Positions 2,274 to 10,365 of a stretch of DNA of 64,000 bases are shown one piece after another; the first letter of the stretch is position 1; the number at the start of each line of letters is the position of its first letter. The DNA comes from a virus: positions 1 through 64,000 of IMG/VR virus record IMGVR_UViG_3300045391_004554. One strand, written 5' to 3'. A program made the position numbers and the translations under genes. The notes under the pieces are model-generated. The model was not told where the DNA came from, did not search any database, and saw only the letters and a program-made list of their open reading frames with translations.

Positions 2274-2426
2274 CTTCAAATATAACCTTTATACTATTTA
2301 CAATCAATAGCAGATAATCCAACACAAATACATGTACATATTCATATCAAATGTGTATATAGATACCCTACATTAGTATTGATAATCAGCAGATTATAAA
2401 TTATTTTAAAATAAATTAAACTTTTA

Positions 2427-2459
2427 TTTGGAATTAACGTACATATACATGTATATTAG
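2427..2459 (+). promoter_or_regulatory. Bacteroidota sigma70-type early promoter
   Basis: TTTG (2427-2430), 21-nt spacer, TATATTAG (2452-2459; consensus TAnnTTTG); A/T-rich upstream. Confidence 0.65.
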
Positions 2460-2699
2460 CAGAGCGGTTCACTATATGACCGCAAATAGCGTACTAACTT
2501 TCTTAGCATTATACTTCTCAATGCTACTAACCACCTCCGAAAGTTACAGCTATAATAGACACGTGTTGAACGTGTACAGTTAGAGAGTGAAGCCACACTA
2601 AAAACTCTCCGGTCGGGATAACCTGAATTGAACCCGCGTTAAGCTCAAATAGAGTGCCATCGAATAAACCGCAGGCTTGAAATAGTGTCACGGTCAAAG

Positions 2700-2765
2700 T
2701 AAAACGTAAACGGATTAAATCCGTTCTGACGAGTCCTTTACAGTAATACAGGACGAAACGTTTTA
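2700..2765 (+). ncRNA. Hammerhead ribozyme, type III
   Basis: Stem III UAAAACG/CGUUUUA, GUA cleavage triplet (cut after 2708), stem I AACGGA/UCCGUU, core CUGACGA (2726-2732), stem II GUCC/GGAC, GAAA (2755-2758). Confidence 0.95.
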
Positions 2766-2779
2766 AAATCACAAATCAC

Positions 2780-3058
2780 ATGAAAACACAATCAGAAGTT
2801 TACACCACAAAGTTTATGGCTCACAATCCAACCGTGTTAGATACCAGAGTCAACAGCAACCGCCAAGTGTGCACCTTTTTAGAGCATCCAACACTAGGCG
2901 AAGATGCAGCAGTATATGTAATGATCGGTGAAATATTAGCCGATACAGAGTTTTTTGACCTTGAAGACTTTTATTACGGCTCAGATTATGAACCTACATT
3001 AATTGACGGCAAGATCATATGTAAATTTGAATATCAGCCAGTAAACAGCCATGAATGA
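2780..3058 (+). CDS. Hypothetical early protein
   Basis: ORF with A-rich leader directly after the hammerhead. Confidence 0.8.
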   Translation: MKTQSEVYTTKFMAHNPTVLDTRVNSNRQVCTFLEHPTLGEDAAVYVMIGEILADTEFFDLEDFYYGSDYEPTLIDGKIICKFEYQPVNSHE

Positions 3059-3248
3059 TAACATTCCTTACATGTCTGCCGAATACGGCAACGGTCAGCA
3101 AGATAAAGCAAAACAAATGTTCGCCAGCCTGTCACCAACACAACAAACCGAATGCGTAGACTTTTTGTCCGGGCATATGTGGTATGATGTGTTAGACTAT
3201 GACGAGTTAGGCGACTTTGAATTATTTATTAACTTCTTAAAATCATGA
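3051..3248 (+). CDS. Hypothetical early protein
   Basis: ORF overlapping upstream stop. Confidence 0.7.
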   Translation: MNDNIPYMSAEYGNGQQDKAKQMFASLSPTQQTECVDFLSGHMWYDVLDYDELGDFELFINFLKS

Positions 3249-3252
3249 AAGC

Positions 3253-3480
3253 ATGAAAGCACAACTTTGTAAATGCAATAACTGCAACGCCATAATGGTA
3301 GATATGAACCCAGCCGAACAGCCGGAATTTGAAATTCTATCTACTATAATTGACATGGAAAATATACAGGAAATAGACCCCGATAACCCCGCTAACCTTT
3401 GCGAAAACTTTTGGGGTTGTCCTAACTGTAAAACCGATGCGCATCTAATTGATATTATATCTATATCACAACTCCACTAA
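3253..3480 (+). CDS. Zinc-ribbon small protein
   Basis: CNNC and CPNC pairs. Confidence 0.75.
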   Translation: MKAQLCKCNNCNAIMVDMNPAEQPEFEILSTIIDMENIQEIDPDNPANLCENFWGCPNCKTDAHLIDIISISQLH

Positions 3481-3532
3481 GGGAGTATAAACCCTATTAG
3501 GCTTAGTGCGTGCCCTTATTTAGGGCGGTCAG
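3471..3532 (+). ncRNA. Pistol ribozyme 1
   Basis: P1 ACUCC/GGAGU, loop ACUAAG pairs with CUUAGU (pseudoknot), AUAAA, GCGU, P3 GCCCU/AGGGC, G-GU-CAG; P2 has one mismatch. Confidence 0.85.
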
Positions 3533-3550
3533 TAAACAAATTTAAATCAC

Positions 3551-4099
3551 ATGAAAACATCTTATTATCACGGTACAAATGCCGATAACCTGCCCCATAT
3601 TTTAAAACACGGCTTGCAATGTTATGAGTCAAAATTATGGACTGTATCAGAAGACGCCATTTATTTATGGCATCCTGAATCATGCGGTAAAGCTAACGAC
3701 TTAGACCCTGAATATTGGGAATCGGAGGCATTTAGATTAGCTAACGAAAGCGGTCAAATTGCCTGTTCGATTGCTAAAGATTGTCGGGTAGTTGTTCTTA
3801 AAATAGAACTTGACGACGAATTAGTTTCCGGCGATACTTCATGCGAGAATATGGAGTCAGGAGGCGCAAAATGCATATATGACAATATCCCAGTTGAGGC
3901 AATAACAGAAATTCACGTATCTAATGATTTATCTTTAGTTAAAGGCTACTTTATGTCTCTAATTTCAAAACGTCGTTATTGCAATATTGATTTTACACCC
4001 TTTGAGCAACAAGTCGCAAAAATGTTTGAAGGAGGCTATTTAATAGACCATTTGGATGATTATATAGAATTTGAAAAATTAGCCGTGGCAACGGCTTAA
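3551..4099 (+). CDS. ADP-ribosyltransferase-fold (ART/Tpt1-like) protein
   Basis: YYHGT-x(3)-L-xx-I-xxx-GL, AIYL, VVLKI and IPVEAI motifs typical of the ART superfamily. Confidence 0.55.
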   Translation: MKTSYYHGTNADNLPHILKHGLQCYESKLWTVSEDAIYLWHPESCGKANDLDPEYWESEAFRLANESGQIACSIAKDCRVVVLKIELDDELVSGDTSCENMESGGAKCIYDNIPVEAITEIHVSNDLSLVKGYFMSLISKRRYCNIDFTPFEQQVAKMFEGGYLIDHLDDYIEFEKLAVATA

Positions 4100-4148
4100 A
4101 ATAGTCTGTTAAGTTGCCAGCGTTCCCGGTTCAATGCCGGGAGGTCAG
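4081..4148 (+). ncRNA. Pistol ribozyme 2
   Basis: P1 AGCCG/CGGCU, pseudoknot UGGCAA/UUGCCA, UAAAAUAG, P2 CUG/CAG, UUAAG, GCGU, P3 UCCCGGU/GCCGGGA, G-GU. Confidence 0.95.
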
Positions 4149-4164
4149 TAAATCACAAAATCAA

Positions 4165-4326
4165 ATGGAAAAGTTAAACAAAATTATTTACCTTAAAAAA
4201 GGTGGCTATGATTGCACAGAAGAAGAAAGTGCATTAATTAAATCTCTTATAAAAGACTTAGTTAAATATTTCCCTATTGAACACAGCGAAGCCATTGAAG
4301 AGCTTGAAAAGGAGGCGCAATCATGA
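4165..4326 (+). CDS. Hypothetical early protein (start revised to MEKLN)
   Basis: ATG 4165 with A-rich leader; the track start (TTG 4114) lies inside the ribozyme. Confidence 0.7.
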   Translation: MEKLNKIIYLKKGGYDCTEEESALIKSLIKDLVKYFPIEHSEAIEELEKEAQS

Positions 4327-5291
4327 AAAATAATTTCAAACCTAAAAGCAAAAGCGCAGCAAGTGCCAACCCTTTCGACGTTTACCAGATGGTAACGGAT
4401 AAGATTTTAAAGCAGATTGAGGAGACCGGGCGCCTGCCTTGGACAAAACCGTGGAAAAGTGCAGGACTATCCGGCAACGGTGTATTTCCAATGAACGGCA
4501 AAACTAAAAGACGTTACGAAGGCGTTAACTTCTTTTTGCTACAGTTTTCCGGTTTTACCTCTCCTTACTGGCTATCATTCAAACAGGTTGAAGAGCTAAA
4601 AGGCACAATACGCAAAGGCGAAAAGGCCACGCAAATCGTATTTTGGAAGATCAATAAATACGATGAAAAAGACGAGACCACCGGAGAAATTAAGCAAAAA
4701 CAAGTCCCTTTACTACGTTATTACAACGTGTTTAATGTGGAACAGTGCGAAGGCTTAAATTTGCCAGTTGAAGCAATTGCAGAGCCTACAGAGCCACAAA
4801 ATGATAATACGCCTATTGAGCTAAGCGAATCAGTGATAGACCAATACGGACGCTTACAACCAGCCTTAACTATTCAGGTTAGCGAGAGTAACGAAGCCTA
4901 CTACCAGCCGGGACGCGATTTAGTTAATATGCCAGTTATTAACCAGTTTGAAAGCAGCGAAGCGTTTTATTCTGTCTTCTTTCACGAACTTGCACATAGC
5001 ACAGGCCACAAGGACAGGCTAAACCGCAAAGAGGTTGTTGAAGGTAGTGTATTTGGTTCAGGCGGTTACGGTCAAGAGGAACTTTGCGCAGAGTTAACAG
5101 CCGCTTTTATTTGTGCCGAAGTCGGTATTAATAATGAGACCACAGAGACCCGCAGCGCATCGTATATTAAAAATTGGATGCAGACTATTAAAGCAGATAA
5201 GAAACTGTTTATTATGGCAGCAGGACGCGCCAGCAAGGCCGCTAATTACATATTAAATAAGGATGCAGCCATAGAGGAGGAAGTAAACTAA
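4323..5291 (+). CDS. ardC: ArdC-family anti-restriction/ssDNA-binding protein with zincin-like domain
   Basis: PWTKPW, YEGVN, WLSFKQ, IRKGEK, YNVFNVEQ, HELAHSTGH, EELCAEL, SYIKNW motifs. Confidence 0.92.
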   Translation: MKNNFKPKSKSAASANPFDVYQMVTDKILKQIEETGRLPWTKPWKSAGLSGNGVFPMNGKTKRRYEGVNFFLLQFSGFTSPYWLSFKQVEELKGTIRKGEKATQIVFWKINKYDEKDETTGEIKQKQVPLLRYYNVFNVEQCEGLNLPVEAIAEPTEPQNDNTPIELSESVIDQYGRLQPALTIQVSESNEAYYQPGRDLVNMPVINQFESSEAFYSVFFHELAHSTGHKDRLNRKEVVEGSVFGSGGYGQEELCAELTAAFICAEVGINNETTETRSASYIKNWMQTIKADKKLFIMAAGRASKAANYILNKDAAIEEEVN

Positions 5292-5293
5292 AT

Positions 5294-5368
5294 GCCGTCT
5301 AAGCGGCTTAAAATAGTTCTGTCAAGCTTAGAGCGTTCAACCCGTGTTTGTATACGGGTTGAGGTCAG
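5294..5368 (+). ncRNA. Pistol ribozyme 3
   Basis: P1 GCCG/CGGC, pseudoknot UCUAAG/CUUAGA, UUAAAAUAG, CUG/CAG, GCGU, long P3 UCAACCCGUGU/AUACGGGUUGA, G-GU. Confidence 0.95.
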
Positions 5369-5383
5369 TAAAATTAAATCATT

Positions 5384-5641
5384 ATGTCAACTTACTATTA
5401 TCTTAGAGAATCCGCTAACGGTAAGAAAAAGCGGTTTTTAAACAATTGGGATATTATAAAATATCTCGAAGAAAAGCACAATCTTAAAATTGAATGCGCA
5501 GTAGTTGCAGCTTGGAATATTCAAAAAGTATTCTACGTTGCAGCAGGGGAACCCGAAGCAGGAAAGTATATAGCCGAAACTGTATATCTTAATGAAAAGG
5601 ATGAATTGAGTTATTTACGCACAAACATGTTAATTAGCTAA
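5384..5641 (+). CDS. Hypothetical early protein
   Basis: ORF after pistol 3. Confidence 0.75.
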   Translation: MSTYYYLRESANGKKKRFLNNWDIIKYLEEKHNLKIECAVVAAWNIQKVFYVAAGEPEAGKYIAETVYLNEKDELSYLRTNMLIS

Positions 5642-5647
5642 GTCATT

Positions 5648-6004
5648 ATGGAAACATTAACATTAACCCAGCGGGATATGAAACCGCTTTTAATTGAGAC
5701 AGAAGGCAACGAAGTTTTTAACGAAAAACACATGTTAGCCGAAATATTCAATTGTGTGAAATTCTGGAACCGGGAGGGCCTACACTGTCATATTAATAAC
5801 AATGAGCACTACAAAACCGGAGGCAGCTACGAGGATTTTATTTTACGCTGTATCGCAGCAGATTGCCGGGCCTTCGTTAACGCTAAAAAATCAGTGTGGA
5901 ATCCTAATGTAATTGAAGGAGCTTATATAACTGGTAAAGGAGGCAACCACGTTTGGGTTGCCCGTGCCAGTGACAACGAACGTATTTTATTTATTCACTT
6001 TTAA
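5648..6004 (+). CDS. Hypothetical early protein
   Basis: ORF in operon. Confidence 0.8.
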   Translation: METLTLTQRDMKPLLIETEGNEVFNEKHMLAEIFNCVKFWNREGLHCHINNNEHYKTGGSYEDFILRCIAADCRAFVNAKKSVWNPNVIEGAYITGKGGNHVWVARASDNERILFIHF

Positions 6005-6017
6005 AATCACAACCATT

Positions 6018-6131
6018 ATGGAATTTTTAAAACTTATTGGCGGCTTTGTGGGAACTGGTGTTCCTGCTTTGCTTATTGTGGGTACACTCGTTTTTTCTGC
6101 TAAACAGGTACGTAAAGAGCTTGGAGTATAG
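6018..6131 (+). CDS. Small single-TM membrane peptide (37 aa)
   Basis: MEFLKLIGGFVGTGVPALLIVGTLVFSAKQVRKELGV, good A-rich leader; below track cutoff. Confidence 0.55.
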   Translation: MEFLKLIGGFVGTGVPALLIVGTLVFSAKQVRKELGV

Positions 6132-6225
6132 TCCAGGCTCTTGATCATTACCCGGTAGATAGTTTGGAGATCACGTTTGATACCACTTATCTATATATAC
6201 ATAAAGTTTGAGTTAACATTATTTC

Positions 6226-6300
6226 AGTCGGTGCAACGACTTTAAATATCTGTTAGGTTGCACGCGTGCGTACCTGTAGCTTATATTGGTACGCGGTCAG
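6226..6300 (+). ncRNA. Pistol ribozyme 4
   Basis: P1 AGUCG/CGACU, pseudoknot GUGCAA/UUGCAC, UUAAAUA, CUG/CAG, GCGU, P3 GCGUACC/GGUACGC, G-GU. Confidence 0.95.
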
Positions 6301-6315
6301 TAAATTTAAAACATC

Positions 6316-6813
6316 ATGAAAACTAACTTGCCATCTGAAATTACCTCTATTGAAGAGGCTAAAAAATTCCTATCTGAATTACATGCCAATGGGGAATCGT
6401 TTCACCCAGAGGATAACGCGCACGATATAGATTGGGATTTACCTGACGAGCAAAAGCCTGATTATATGCAGTCACGTCAACTTAATAAACTAATGTTTGA
6501 CATTTATAACCTGCCGGGTAATGATAGGAGTCATGTTAATTTAGCTTTTGATCCTTGTGATTATCTGCTTTGGTTGGATGTTAATTTTAATGACAGCAGA
6601 CTAAAGGAAGCTATTGAAAACGGCACTCTTGAAAAGTTTACTACCGAATACGAGTACGTCATCGAAAAAGGCCCAGACCCATATAATCCCTGCTATGAGT
6701 TAACACTTATTAGCGGAGATAATATAATTATGGTGCTGGAATATAACACCCGCCAAGACGCCGAGTATGATGTAGAAATATTGGAACATTGGCTAAATAT
6801 TACCGAAGCATAA
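6316..6813 (+). CDS. Hypothetical acidic early protein
   Basis: ORF after pistol 4. Confidence 0.8.
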   Translation: MKTNLPSEITSIEEAKKFLSELHANGESFHPEDNAHDIDWDLPDEQKPDYMQSRQLNKLMFDIYNLPGNDRSHVNLAFDPCDYLLWLDVNFNDSRLKEAIENGTLEKFTTEYEYVIEKGPDPYNPCYELTLISGDNIIMVLEYNTRQDAEYDVEILEHWLNITEA

Positions 6814-6818
6814 ATAAT

Positions 6819-7067
6819 ATGAGAACGACAATTACCCGAATTCTGGATATTCCTAAGATGGATTTACCAGATACATTTGTTAGTTCATTGCACGCGTGCT
6901 CATGCTATGAGGATAACGTAGAGCAGCAGCACATCTACAATTCATTTGACCTCTTAAATAATGGCCTTTTTGCTGGCGTTTTCAATAAAGCAAATAAAAC
7001 TATCCTTCAAGAAATTGAGGCTTTATGCCTTCAAAACGAGTGTACCTATTTCAGGTTAACTTACTAA
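6819..7067 (+). CDS. Hypothetical protein (start revised)
   Basis: ATG 6819 just after upstream stop. Confidence 0.7.
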   Translation: MRTTITRILDIPKMDLPDTFVSSLHACSCYEDNVEQQHIYNSFDLLNNGLFAGVFNKANKTILQEIEALCLQNECTYFRLTY

Positions 7068-7132
7068 AAACATACGTTTCATATCGCTGTAGCCAGCTTC
7101 AAGCTGGTAGAACAGATACAAAACATAACTTT

Positions 7133-7339
7133 ATGACGTCTTTAATAAAAAGCAAAGAAAATTTTGATAGGCTTGGACAAGTCGGCAAAATAAACTATAT
7201 GAAGAAATTAGGCTTTGCCTGGAATGCACTGGACTCTTACGATTTTTATGGCAGTGAGCGCAGGTTTTTTAGATGGCTGCATAGGAATAATCTTATAGAG
7301 CAATTTATAAACGATTTTTCTCATGAGTCGGCCTCTTAG
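7133..7339 (+). CDS. Hypothetical protein (start revised)
   Basis: ATG 7133 with A-rich leader. Confidence 0.65.
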   Translation: MTSLIKSKENFDRLGQVGKINYMKKLGFAWNALDSYDFYGSERRFFRWLHRNNLIEQFINDFSHESAS

Positions 7340-8046
7340 CGTATTAATCGATTGTGAGCGTTCAGGGATAGTCCGTGAAGCTTTTGCAAAACGCGGTTGG
7401 GATGCTTGGAGCTGCGATCTGGAAGATACCGAAATTCCAGGCAACCACATCAAAGGAGACGCAATAGCGGCCCTGCATTCACGCGTTTGGGATTTAGTTA
7501 TAGCTCATCCGCCTTGCACCCGTTTGGCTAATAGCGGAGTCCTACGGCTTTATATCGATGGCAAAAAGGTAAATGGCATCGACATTGGTAAATGGCATCG
7601 ACATTGGTAAATGGCGTGAAATGGAAGACGGGGCGCACTTCTTTAAAAAGTTTATTGGTAGTTGTGGATATCTGGCTATTGAAAATCCTATACCTCATAA
7701 ATATGCTTTGAAGATCATAGGTGATAAATATACCCAGATCATACAACCGCACCAATTTGGGGAAGATGCAAGTAAAGCAACCTGTTTGTGGCTCTATGGC
7801 CTCCCCAAACTTAAACCTACCCTGCACTATCCCCCGCGTTATGTAGATGGGAAAGCTCTTTGGGGAAATCAAACCGATAGCGGACAAAATAAATTACCGC
7901 CAGACAGCAAGAAAAATAAAGGACTACGGGCTAAAATGCGCTCACAAACGTATCACGGAATAGCTGATGCTATGAGTGCCCAGTGGGGATCATTCATTGA
8001 ACAAAAGTTTCATACTACCTTGTTTCACTCGTCGGAGCGAGTATAA
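7323..8046 (+). pseudogene. Phage-type C5 DNA cytosine methyltransferase, frameshifted by a 19-bp tandem duplication
   Basis: CERSG..VREAF, WSCDL, IAHPPCT in ORF 7323-7610; IENP, IQPHQFG, KATCLWL, RSQTY.GIADAM..QW in ORF 7573-8046; removing one repeat unit joins them. Confidence 0.85.
7568..7615 (+). repeat. 19-bp tandem repeat GGTAAATGGCATCGACATT x2 plus 10-bp partial copy
   Basis: Read directly from the sequence. Confidence 0.95.
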
Positions 8047-8097
8047 ATAGTGCTGCTTAAGCTTCGAGCGTTCCAACCTCTTTAGGTTGGAGATCAG
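8027..8097 (+). ncRNA. Pistol ribozyme 5 (A-U cleavage-site variant)
   Basis: P1 ACUCG/CGAGU, pseudoknot UCGGAG/CUUCGA (one G-U), AUAAAUAG, CUG/CAG, UUAAG, GCGU, P3 UCCAACCU/AGGUUGGA, G-AU. Confidence 0.92.
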
Positions 8098-8111
8098 TAA
8101 ATCATATAATC

Positions 8112-8828
8112 ATGAAAAAAGTATCATTATCATTAACTCAGGTTAATTACCTGATTGAAGAAAGTTTTAACAGTGGGTACAGGTCTGGTCAGAGCGCCCA
8201 ACGTTACTTAAGGTCAGAATGTATCCATCAAGATCAACTTGACAGGCTTAAGGAAGTTAAAGACGGATTATATTCAGAATTTAAGTTTGATAACGCTCAC
8301 GACCAGAACGGCTACTTTAATGCCTTCTCTCACTGTATCTGTATTCTTGCAGATTGGAGAGCTAATAAAGTAACCTTGCAGCCAGATGAAGACAAGCGCA
8401 TAGGTGAGCTTATTGGAGCATTCGAGAATATACACAATAAGTATGAAAATGAAGCCCTCCAAGAATCAAAGCAAACCTTTTCTGATCGTTTAATGGAAAC
8501 TTACCATTCGGCTAAGGCTACCATTGACGAACTTGTTAAACTTCATAACGGTAGCTTTGTGGTTTATGAGTCCTCAGCCGCCTATGACGAGGATGAAGAA
8601 TGCCTGACCGACGATTTCCTGGAAACCTCTACTTCTATTATCGTCAATACTACCTTTAACGATAATGAAACCGTTTATCTGTTAAAGCTGGAAGGCAGTG
8701 AGATATATTATATCACTGAACACGGCACTATAGATAGTGTGGATATCCAATTTGTGGATGACCACACGGTTTGCGATATCGCCGATTGGATAGTTGCCTG
8801 TAACCTGATTGAAAAAGCACAATCATGA
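8112..8828 (+). CDS. Hypothetical acidic early protein
   Basis: 238-aa ORF after pistol 5. Confidence 0.85.
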   Translation: MKKVSLSLTQVNYLIEESFNSGYRSGQSAQRYLRSECIHQDQLDRLKEVKDGLYSEFKFDNAHDQNGYFNAFSHCICILADWRANKVTLQPDEDKRIGELIGAFENIHNKYENEALQESKQTFSDRLMETYHSAKATIDELVKLHNGSFVVYESSAAYDEDEECLTDDFLETSTSIIVNTTFNDNETVYLLKLEGSEIYYITEHGTIDSVDIQFVDDHTVCDIADWIVACNLIEKAQS

Positions 8829-9117
8829 ACCGGGTACTATTCCTCACCTTCTGGATTGCCAAGCAAATCGGAGATGAACAACGAATGACTAACCTACAAC
8901 AAATTATTGTTGTAGGTGTACTGGTAGGTATGTTAGTTAATATGGTTTTAAATAGGTAAATCATGGCTGAAAAAGTATTTTACACGTTGATTATCTTGGC
9001 TCTTATTACAGTGTTAATAAGAATAATTTTATTGGCGTTCCTATTTTAGATCCGGCTATCGCCCTGCAAATCCCGGAGACCATCTCCGGGATAAAAAACA
9101 ACTTAACTTATATAATT

Positions 9118-9327
9118 ATGAAATCCTTTCTTATAACAGCTTCTAAATACATTTTCTTACTAATGGTTTGGAGTGGAATAATGGTAGTAGCATGCAGCAT
9201 CGGACACCTGTTCGTGCTTGTGTGGGAAACCACGAGCGACAAAGGTTTTTTATGGCTCGGGGCTGGCTCTTTGGCATTTATATTATTAATATGCCTATTA
9301 TTTACAAAGGTGTTCGATGATGAATAA
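9118..9327 (+). CDS. Two-TM membrane protein
   Basis: Two hydrophobic segments. Confidence 0.7.
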   Translation: MKSFLITASKYIFLLMVWSGIMVVACSIGHLFVLVWETTSDKGFLWLGAGSLAFILLICLLFTKVFDDE

Positions 9328-9390
9328 CTCCGTGCATGGAGTATAAAAATTGATTAGGGTGCACGCGTCCGGCTATATGCCGGGGTTCAG
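9327..9390 (+). ncRNA. Pistol ribozyme 6
   Basis: P1 ACUCC/GGAGU, pseudoknot GUGCAU/GUGCAC (one G-U), AUAAAAA, P2 UUGA/UCAG, GCGU, P3 CCGGC/GCCGG, G-GU. Confidence 0.92.
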
Positions 9391-9405
9391 TAAAATCAAA
9401 AAAAA

Positions 9406-9912
9406 ATGGAAACCAAAAATCAAAAATCTCCGGCTATTCAGATTTTAGAAGCAATTTGGATAGCAACCCCTTATCCATCTCACCAACACGTTAACAGAAC
9501 CATGCAGTCCGCTCTCTCGCTGGTTATTTCGTCAGGAATTAATTTTCATATTGATGACTTTGAATATATTCATAAGACTTTTCGCCCTGGCTATTGGATG
9601 GGCAGATCAAGCAACGGCCATCATTTAGGAGAGCATTATTACGCGGAGGCATGCAATAGTAATCCGTCATGCGTAGCAGCTTGGGAGCATTATTACAAAC
9701 GTCAGGGTTTTATACTAGACGGCAAGAGAATGTACTGCAACAGTAGGTTTTTATATGACGGCCTTGGCTGCACCATAACAGGCTGGAGTGAAGATAATCA
9801 GCGTTTGACCGCTGTAGGTTACTCAGGTAGTTTTGACAAGGGCAAACGAACGCTTTTAAGCTTTGATAAAAACACCTGGTTGGCCGAACGTAAAACTATT
9901 AAACTCGTATAA
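9406..9912 (+). CDS. Hypothetical early protein
   Basis: ORF after pistol 6. Confidence 0.85.
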   Translation: METKNQKSPAIQILEAIWIATPYPSHQHVNRTMQSALSLVISSGINFHIDDFEYIHKTFRPGYWMGRSSNGHHLGEHYYAEACNSNPSCVAAWEHYYKRQGFILDGKRMYCNSRFLYDGLGCTITGWSEDNQRLTAVGYSGSFDKGKRTLLSFDKNTWLAERKTIKLV

Positions 9913-9914
9913 CA

Positions 9915-10109
9915 ATGGCAGACTTTTATTTACTATCTCAAACAGCAACCGGCCACAAAAAGATAAGCTTGGTTAAATTTATTCGGGCAGCTTGTGGCAA
10001 GATCAAAGTTAAACACACGCACCAATTGCATGAGTATTGCGCCTGTTGTGATGCTATTACTCCTACTTATAGACAAGAATGTTGTGTATGTGGAACGTAT
10101 AAAGATTAG
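9915..10109 (+). CDS. Small zinc-finger protein
   Basis: CACC...CCVC. Confidence 0.7.
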   Translation: MADFYLLSQTATGHKKISLVKFIRAACGKIKVKHTHQLHEYCACCDAITPTYRQECCVCGTYKD

Positions 10110-10161
10110 TTCTGTAGCTTGGAGATCAATATCATCTATATATACATAACCTTTCACGAAA

Positions 10162-10365
10162 ATGAAATTACACTTTAAAGTAACATTCAGGCAAATATAT
10201 TGGTTTGCGGCATTCCTCTTTAGCACCATCCTTATTGGTGCCCAGGACTGCATATCTTACCTTACTACCGGAGCACTGGTTTTCTGTATTGCGAAAACCT
10301 ACTGCTTTATGTTCCTGTCTTCTTATGTGCTTTGGAAAGCGTATAAGATATTTCAAAAAGATTGA
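10162..10365 (+). CDS. Small membrane protein
   Basis: Hydrophobic ORF preceded by a TATACAT box. Confidence 0.6.
   Translation: MKLHFKVTFRQIYWFAAFLFSTILIGAQDCISYLTTGALVFCIAKTYCFMFLSSYVLWKAYKIFQKD

Follow-up and report, generated by a model that had tools for sequence, protein, structure and literature searches.

The first 64 kb (the window) of a 100,225-base IMG/VR virus record (IMGVR_UViG_3300045391_004554; completeness estimate 83%) carries six ribozymes of the self-cleaving pistol class, each placed just ahead of an open reading frame (ORF). The locus raises the question of whether the cut itself determines how the downstream message is translated and decayed, or whether the uniform leader that it leaves follows from the position at which the ribozyme ends. 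Pistols were called with Rfam cmscan (RF02679, gathering score 34.5 bits). All six copies lie on the + strand, pass the gathering score with 37.5–56.4 bits, and cover model positions 1–68, and an Rfam scan of the remainder of the record found no further pistols. Their identity as ribozymes, their geometry, and their spacing are clear, and the design recurs in other phages. In the model, the published cut between G53 and U54 (PMC6154101, PMC4604425) falls between positions 63 and 64. With the cut placed there, the first base of every product is a U, and the distances to the next ORF-opening ATG are 22, 20, 19, 19, 18, and 20 nt, exactly the values given in an earlier note on this DNA. The products begin UCAGUAAA five times and UUCAGUAAA once, each continuing into an A-rich tract, so the (U)UCAGUAAA opening described in that note is borne out by the predicted cuts at all six sites. 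The sequence GTCAGTAAA is found at four of the pistol ends and nowhere else in the 64 kb on either strand.

The six copies have a mean column identity of 63% and retain the fold. In every copy the P1-loop pseudoknot is fully (100%) paired, and at five of its six pairs both bases vary among the copies. Helix P1 is 95.8% paired, and controls in which the partner columns were slid show pairing of 30–44%. The pseudoknot of pistol 1 (3471), ACUAAG/CUUAGU, is intact, and that of pistol 2 (4081) comprises six pairs. The active-site nucleotides of the env25 pistol are A/G32, the G33–C41 pair, G40, and G42 (PMC6154101). All six window copies contain UUA(A/G)G (UCAAG in pistol 3) and GCGU, and the G–C pair is invariant. 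Helix P2 has three to four pairs in five of the pistols, and in copy 3471 two of the four pairs are non-standard. Pistol 8027 has A-U at the scissile position instead of G-U; because A precedes the cut in 6 of 87 other surveyed pistols, this is a natural variant. For pistol 3471 an alternative cut at U3520, proposed by our own parser with a 4-bp P2 and a 2-bp P3, was rejected; preference went to the Rfam alignment and to homology with the five other GGUCAGUAAA ends.

A putative type III hammerhead ribozyme upstream of the first pistol separates the position of the cut from the position at which the structure ends. Its core, CUGACGAG...CGAAAC, and three stems are visible in both sequence and fold. 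The cut is predicted between 2708 and 2709, and the 3' end of the element lies 15 nt ahead of ATG 2780, giving a predicted product with a 71-nt leader containing two hairpins. The distance from the last paired base to the ATG is 13–17 nt at the six pistols. The hammerhead keeps a 15-nt spacer yet is predicted to cut at the 5' end of the element, the first of four observations arguing that what stays constant is the gap between structure and ATG, wherever the cut falls. An A-rich pre-ATG sequence of the AAAUCA type is also present at ribozyme-free junctions, for example before 3253, 6018, 10668, and 19368, and the junction from 6004 to 6018 has a 13-nt spacer of the AAAUCAC type. The uniform 18–22-nt leader thus results from the fixed 5 nt between the pistol cut and the pistol 3' end, added to a 13–17-nt unstructured A-rich spacer. 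With the exception of pistol 4, pistol starts range from 20 nt before the end of the upstream gene to 1 nt past it, and because five of the six abut or overlap the upstream stop codon, ribozyme and spacer fill the entire gap, as tight packing predicts. The predicted unpaired probability of the region −13 to +15 is 0.56–0.89 in the uncut RNA and 0.73–0.89 in the cut RNA (folded without the pseudoknot). As unpairing is already high before the cut, the start region does not clearly depend on cleavage to become open.

The host is probably a member of the Bacteroidota, as indicated by leaders without a Shine-Dalgarno (SD) sequence, by a Flavo-1 RNA in the window, and by the same motif in the related phage G100. 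The Flavo-1 RNA (RF01705) is located at 1757–1832 on the − strand, directly upstream of the early block, and its counterpart in G100 at 4682–4753 of locus L244, also on the − strand, with 52.7 bits. In Flavobacterium johnsoniae initiation is SD-less, the region from −20 to +20 is depleted of structure, and an A at −3 is helpful (PMC6847099). A cut at about −20 falls at the upstream edge of this low-structure region, so the spacing in the window fits.

The six pistols and the hammerhead lie within 2701–9390, all on the + strand, and occupy the larger gaps between + strand ORFs. Several same-strand ribozymes thus stand between consecutive genes of one block, which is the arrangement defined as a ribozyme-punctuated phage operon (PMC3088659). 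The reading that we favor, and consider reasonably probable, is that the early transcript processes itself into messages of one to three genes, and that the uniformity of the leaders comes from pistol geometry together with the spacer. The + strand early genes, over their first ~7 kb, would be transcribed as one or two long RNAs; these genes are small and, one ArdC-like anti-restriction protein aside, mostly lack a known function. These RNAs would cut themselves at the seven ribozymes without need of a host RNase; cleavage at the pistol sites in vivo is presumed. Pistols are packed between the preceding stop codon and the following start region. Because a pistol cuts 5 nt ahead of its own 3' end, the downstream message would start with 5'-HO-U(U)CAGU, and the folded ribozyme, terminating in a 2',3'-cyclic phosphate, would stay on the upstream message as its 3' end. 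The 13–17-nt A-rich spacer precedes early start codons with or without a ribozyme and suits the SD-less initiation of Bacteroidia, which requires roughly −20 to +20 to be unstructured. Separation of the cistrons would presumably uncouple their translation and decay.

Several observations weigh against self-processing of this kind. Pistol 3471, with its two-pair P2, may cleave slowly or be inactive, judging from its predicted pairing. The spacing rule at the 3' boundary draws on a single hammerhead, and no type III hammerhead was present in 49 further pistol-bearing phage records. The block may also be two transcription units instead of one polycistron, because a promoter-like motif, ATCTATATATACATAA, precedes pistol 4. 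This motif has 12 matches compared with 1.45 expected, is intergenic, and is located 12–50 nt before start codons; it is probably a phage-specific promoter or operator. If it is a promoter, the primary transcript starting there would be trimmed at its 5' end by pistol 4. Related copies of the motif are found near 2349 and 10451. The window shows no enrichment of the host −7 promoter consensus, TANNTTTG (66 matches compared with 70 expected). Finally, pistol-free relatives argue that the ribozymes are dispensable for expressing at least some of the genes. Relatives of the ArdC-like gene were found at three loci, the closest of them in G001, a complete 66-kb phage with 57% identity and no pistols. 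G100, also complete and pistol-free, has a 63%-identical homologue of gene 3551–4099, the gene behind pistol 3471. Ahead of the G100 homologue is an 88-nt gap (L244 2913–3000) with an A-rich leader and an imperfect hairpin, CCCTAT...ATAGGG, so that, from its sequence, a different element occupies the place of the pistol.

Ribozymes, leaders, and promoter-like motif copies of the early block, with coordinates in the window. Each leader starts at the first base of the predicted cleavage product (U in all six) and ends immediately before the ATG given.
Feature	Coordinates	Strand	Description
Type III hammerhead	2701..2764	+	RF00008, 42.6 bits, E 3e-6, under gathering score 48.5
Pistol 1	3471..3533	+	37.5 bits; 10-nt overlap with stop-codon end of ORF 3253-3480; P2 weak
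Leader 1	3529..3550	+	22 nt, UCAGUAAACAAAUUUAAAUCAC; ATG 3551
Pistol 2	4081..4149	+	51.1 bits; 19-nt overlap with end of ORF 3551-4099
Leader 2	4145..4164	+	20 nt; ATG 4165
Pistol 3	5293..5369	+	50.8 bits; begins 1 nt past stop codon of ArdC-like gene
Leader 3	5365..5383	+	19 nt; ATG 5384
Pistol 4	6226..6301	+	49.6 bits
Leader 4	6297..6315	+	19 nt; ATG 6316
Pistol 5	8027..8098	+	56.4 bits; 20-nt overlap with end of ORF 7573-8046; A-U at cut
Leader 5	8094..8111	+	18 nt; ATG 8112
Pistol 6	9327..9390	+	38.1 bits; first base is last base of ORF 9118-9327 stop codon
Leader 6	9386..9405	+	20 nt, UUCAGUAAAAUCAAAAAAAA; ATG 9406
Motif ATCTATATATACATAA, copy before pistol 4	6189..6204	+	ends 22 nt before pistol 4
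Motif ATCTATATATACATAA, exact or 1-mismatch copies	6189, 10134, 13096, 19316, 28318	+	

To gather pistols of other phages, IMG/VR was searched with a consensus DNA pattern and with a covariance model derived from the six window copies. Pairing of P3 and P2 was required for placement of the cut, an ORF start was defined as an ATG opening at least 30 codons, and the resulting sample comprised 87 non-redundant phage pistols. Rfam re-scoring of 35 of the gathered pistols, in 17 loci, gave 36–76 bits. An ORF start is located 13–50 nt past the cut for 64% of the 87 pistols; random positions in these loci give 19%. The median length is 25.5 nt for SD-less leaders, which are mostly 17–30 nt long, and 35.5 nt for SD-bearing leaders, and across all surveyed phages the leaders span about 1 to more than 50 nt. 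Within single arrays the lengths are close: 24, 26, 26, and 26 nt for the four pistols of L206; 25 and 24 nt for the two of G051; 24, 21, 26, and 25 nt, plus one of 101 nt, for the five of G052; and 35, 39, 39, 31, and 34 nt for the five of G053 (L240). The six pistols of L216 have a shared leader, UGUAAGAAUUUAAUUUAAAAGGAG. For SD-less arrays the spread within a phage is far smaller than that between phages (permutation p=7.5e-4), and a random set of six out of 24 independent SD-less pistol leaders has a spread of at most 4 nt, as in the window, with P=0.008. These two tests indicate that a per-phage set-point of leader length is real and recurrent.

The leader motifs of G053/L240 and L216 are confined to pistol ends in the sampled DNA, in five of five copies each. 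In L240 (G053:C1:12500-17000, − strand) a small hairpin is positioned at the new 5' end after each of the five pistols, with GNRA loops in three of the five. The identical motif AACCAAGGGAGAGAACAUG stands behind each pistol and nowhere else in the sampled DNA, and the SD sequence is conserved after the hairpin. The window leaders, unlike those of G053, have no 5' hairpin. At the other extreme, an ATG lies within 10 nt of the cut in L193 (13780–13840, − strand) and in about five others of the 87; the L193 product begins UAUG, and cleavage would yield a nearly leaderless message. An Rfam scan of the 17 pistol loci (148 kb) for other ribozyme classes gave only pistols and tRNAs. The pattern GCGT-N(12-34)-GGTCAGTAAA, which matched 117 stretches of viral contigs, was discarded as producing chance matches, with a pistol in none of the 50 records tested.

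The earlier note had read the ribozymes as natural insulators that set translation rate and mRNA stability. The cut itself would then be the selected feature, its 5'-OH end at about −20 providing a uniform, context-free leader that fixes how fast the message is translated and shields it from 5'-end-dependent decay in the manner of RiboJ-type insulators. We regard this as possible rather than probable. The tighter leader lengths within arrays than among phages are in its favor, as are the G053/L240 and L216 motifs found solely behind pistols, which resemble a ribozyme-plus-leader cassette. Synthetic RiboJ raises and insulates expression (PMC6206723), and some fungal RNA viruses need ribozyme cleavage for translation (bioRxiv 10.1101/2024.05.16.594327). 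Studied Bacteroidota lack the 5'–3' exonuclease RNase J and depend on RNase E/G and RNase Y (PMC10234816), so a 5'-OH end would plausibly be harmless or even protective in the host of this phage. The earlier note states that such ends are poor substrates for 5'-monophosphate-stimulated decay, but a 5'-OH end does not stabilize in every setting. In Bacillus, the 5'-OH product of the glmS ribozyme is said to have been found by Collins et al. in 2007 to be degraded by RNase J1. This contrast would fit the 5' hairpins on the SD-type leaders of G053, where they could protect against RNase J in a Bacillota-type host, and the hairpin-free leaders of the window. The insulator proposal accordingly stands in part: the ribozymes are real, their leaders are uniform with a cut at about −20, and the design recurs in other arrays with a leader style that fits the host. 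The part in which the cut sets translation rate and stability did not hold up as well. The operon's hammerhead would give a structured leader of 71 nt with its spacer unchanged, AAAUCA leaders also occur in this phage away from ribozyme junctions, the start region is predicted to become barely more accessible upon cleavage, leaders vary widely across phages, relatives do without pistols, and a 5'-OH end is not stabilizing everywhere.

A broader form of this proposal, to which we give only tentative credence, is that pistol and leader together are selected expression cassettes tuned to the host. Each phage would have its own cut-to-AUG set-point, with A-rich, hairpin-free leaders of 18–26 nt in Bacteroidota phages and leaders of 31–39 nt with a 5' hairpin and an SD sequence in Bacillota-type phages, and the 5'-OH messages would escape 5'-end-dependent decay and load ribosomes equally. 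Comparable in standing, and likewise doubtful, is a reading in which the upstream fragment is what is selected. The pseudoknotted ribozyme with its 2',3'-cyclic phosphate 3' end would block 3'–5' exonucleases and end the coupling of translation and decay, and the leader would be a by-product. In five of six cases the pistol touches or runs into the upstream stop codon and so becomes the 3' end of that gene, and the T7 early mRNAs are reportedly stabilized, according to Dunn and Studier, by 3' hairpins that arise from RNase III cuts. A pistol leaves nearly its whole fold on the 5' product, and the 3' piece can be shorter than 10 nt (PMC8782182). However, protection of the upstream fragment leaves unexplained both the exact placement of the ribozyme 3' end before the next ATG and the conservation of the full leader behind the cut in SD-type phages. 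That the ribozyme-plus-leader units are chiefly module boundaries for recombinational exchange of accessory early genes, with cleavage secondary, is improbable: the small ORFs behind pistols are unrelated to one another and mostly lack a family match, one leader precedes differing genes within arrays, and the identities of flanked genes are not constant according to Perreault et al. (PMC3088659), but the shared DNA of 9–20 nt is too short for efficient homologous exchange, and the catalytic nucleotides and all helices are kept with compensatory changes, which points to selection on the RNA fold and not merely on a DNA junction.

The genes of the early block give few clues from their families. 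Pfam and PHROGs searches of 16 early ORFs gave one ArdC-like match, one weak, sub-threshold match to a DarT N-terminal domain, and three PHROGs of unknown function. The gene starting at ATG 3551 encodes 182 amino acids and belongs to phrog_3303, of unknown function. The ORF at ATG 4165 encodes 53 amino acids and overlaps the start of the ArdC-like gene at 4323–5291. Megablast of 2400–10200 against GenBank phages gave zero matches, and no relatives of gene 9406–9912 turned up. A search of sequencing runs for words sampled from this DNA listed no RNA run and one DNA run, from a soil metagenome, with a small share of the words. At 7569–7606 a perfect 19-bp tandem duplication (GGTAAATGGCATCGACATT twice) shifts the frame of an apparent single gene into ORFs 7323–7610 and 7573–8046, neither half of which has a Pfam family match. 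A perfect 10-bp hairpin, ATCCCGGAGA cca TCTCCGGGAT, is present at 9070–9092, between a short ORF and ORF 9118–9327 within the ribozyme-punctuated block, with a T-run on neither strand.

The window ribozymes add new members to a known class, and their arrangement has been known since 2011 (PMC3088659). The pistol class (RF02679; Weinberg et al. 2015; Harris et al. 2015, PMC4604425), whose structures 5K7C and 5KTJ are reviewed in PMC6154101, shares with the window copies the P1 hairpin, the 6-bp pseudoknot, P2 and P3, the catalytic nucleotides, the predicted cut 5 nt from the 3' end (between G and U in five of the six), and a phage setting. In contrast to the reviewed members, which are mostly from Firmicutes (PMC6154101), the six in the window belong to an SD-less, Flavo-1-carrying, probably Bacteroidota phage, and they include the one A-U copy and the one copy with a 2-bp P2. 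The closest precedent for the arrangement is the prophage hammerhead arrays, which flank single genes including ardA, cleave in vitro and in Escherichia coli, and were proposed to process long phage RNA (PMC3088659), a proposal that a 2019 review restates as still to be tested (PMC6765202). There, as in the window, several ribozymes punctuate one phage unit, the flanked genes are variable and include anti-restriction genes (ardA there and the ArdC-like gene here), and processing into gene-length mRNAs is proposed. A halovirus hammerhead of that study is positioned 13 nt before a start codon, with a mapped 5' end near its cut (PMC3088659). Unlike hammerheads, the window pistols cut near their 3' end, so the downstream message sheds the ribozyme and keeps just 18–22 nt.

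A functional analogy can also be drawn with phage T7. Dunn and Studier are said to have found in 1973 that its early polycistronic mRNA is cut by RNase III between cistrons. In both phages an early operon with an anti-restriction gene is cut between cistrons into messages with defined ends. T7 uses the host RNase III, which leaves a 5'-phosphate and a 3'-OH, whereas the window RNA would cut itself and is predicted to leave a 5'-OH and a 2',3'-cyclic phosphate, and the T7 sites and the window pistols have no sequence or structural relationship. RiboJ, an engineered hammerhead-type insulator with an added hairpin, has been tested in E. coli (Lou et al. 2012; PMC6206723, PMC8383906). The window pistols would resemble it as self-cleaving ribozymes directly upstream of the ribosome-binding region that remove variable upstream RNA and leave a defined 5'-OH leader; their leaders differ in carrying no hairpin. 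What may be new is the quantified enrichment of starts past the cut, the quantified per-phage set-point, and a leader style that matches the type of host. The enrichment of starts, within-phage leader uniformity, and host-matched leader styles were not found in the searchable literature, which did not cover Weinberg et al. 2015.

The chemistry of the pistol class is well studied, and we know of no biological role that has been demonstrated for it. If pistol and leader are indeed cassettes tuned to the host, this would give the class its first biological function. With six pistols and a hammerhead, near-identical leaders, a host type with known translation rules, and a complete pistol-free relative, the locus is a compact test bed for the question of whether self-cleavage just ahead of a start codon changes translation or the life span of an mRNA, and it could separate the effect of the cut position from that of the distance between structure and start codon. 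If cleavage does alter translation or mRNA life span, these ribozymes would be natural insulator parts for engineering in Bacteroidota.

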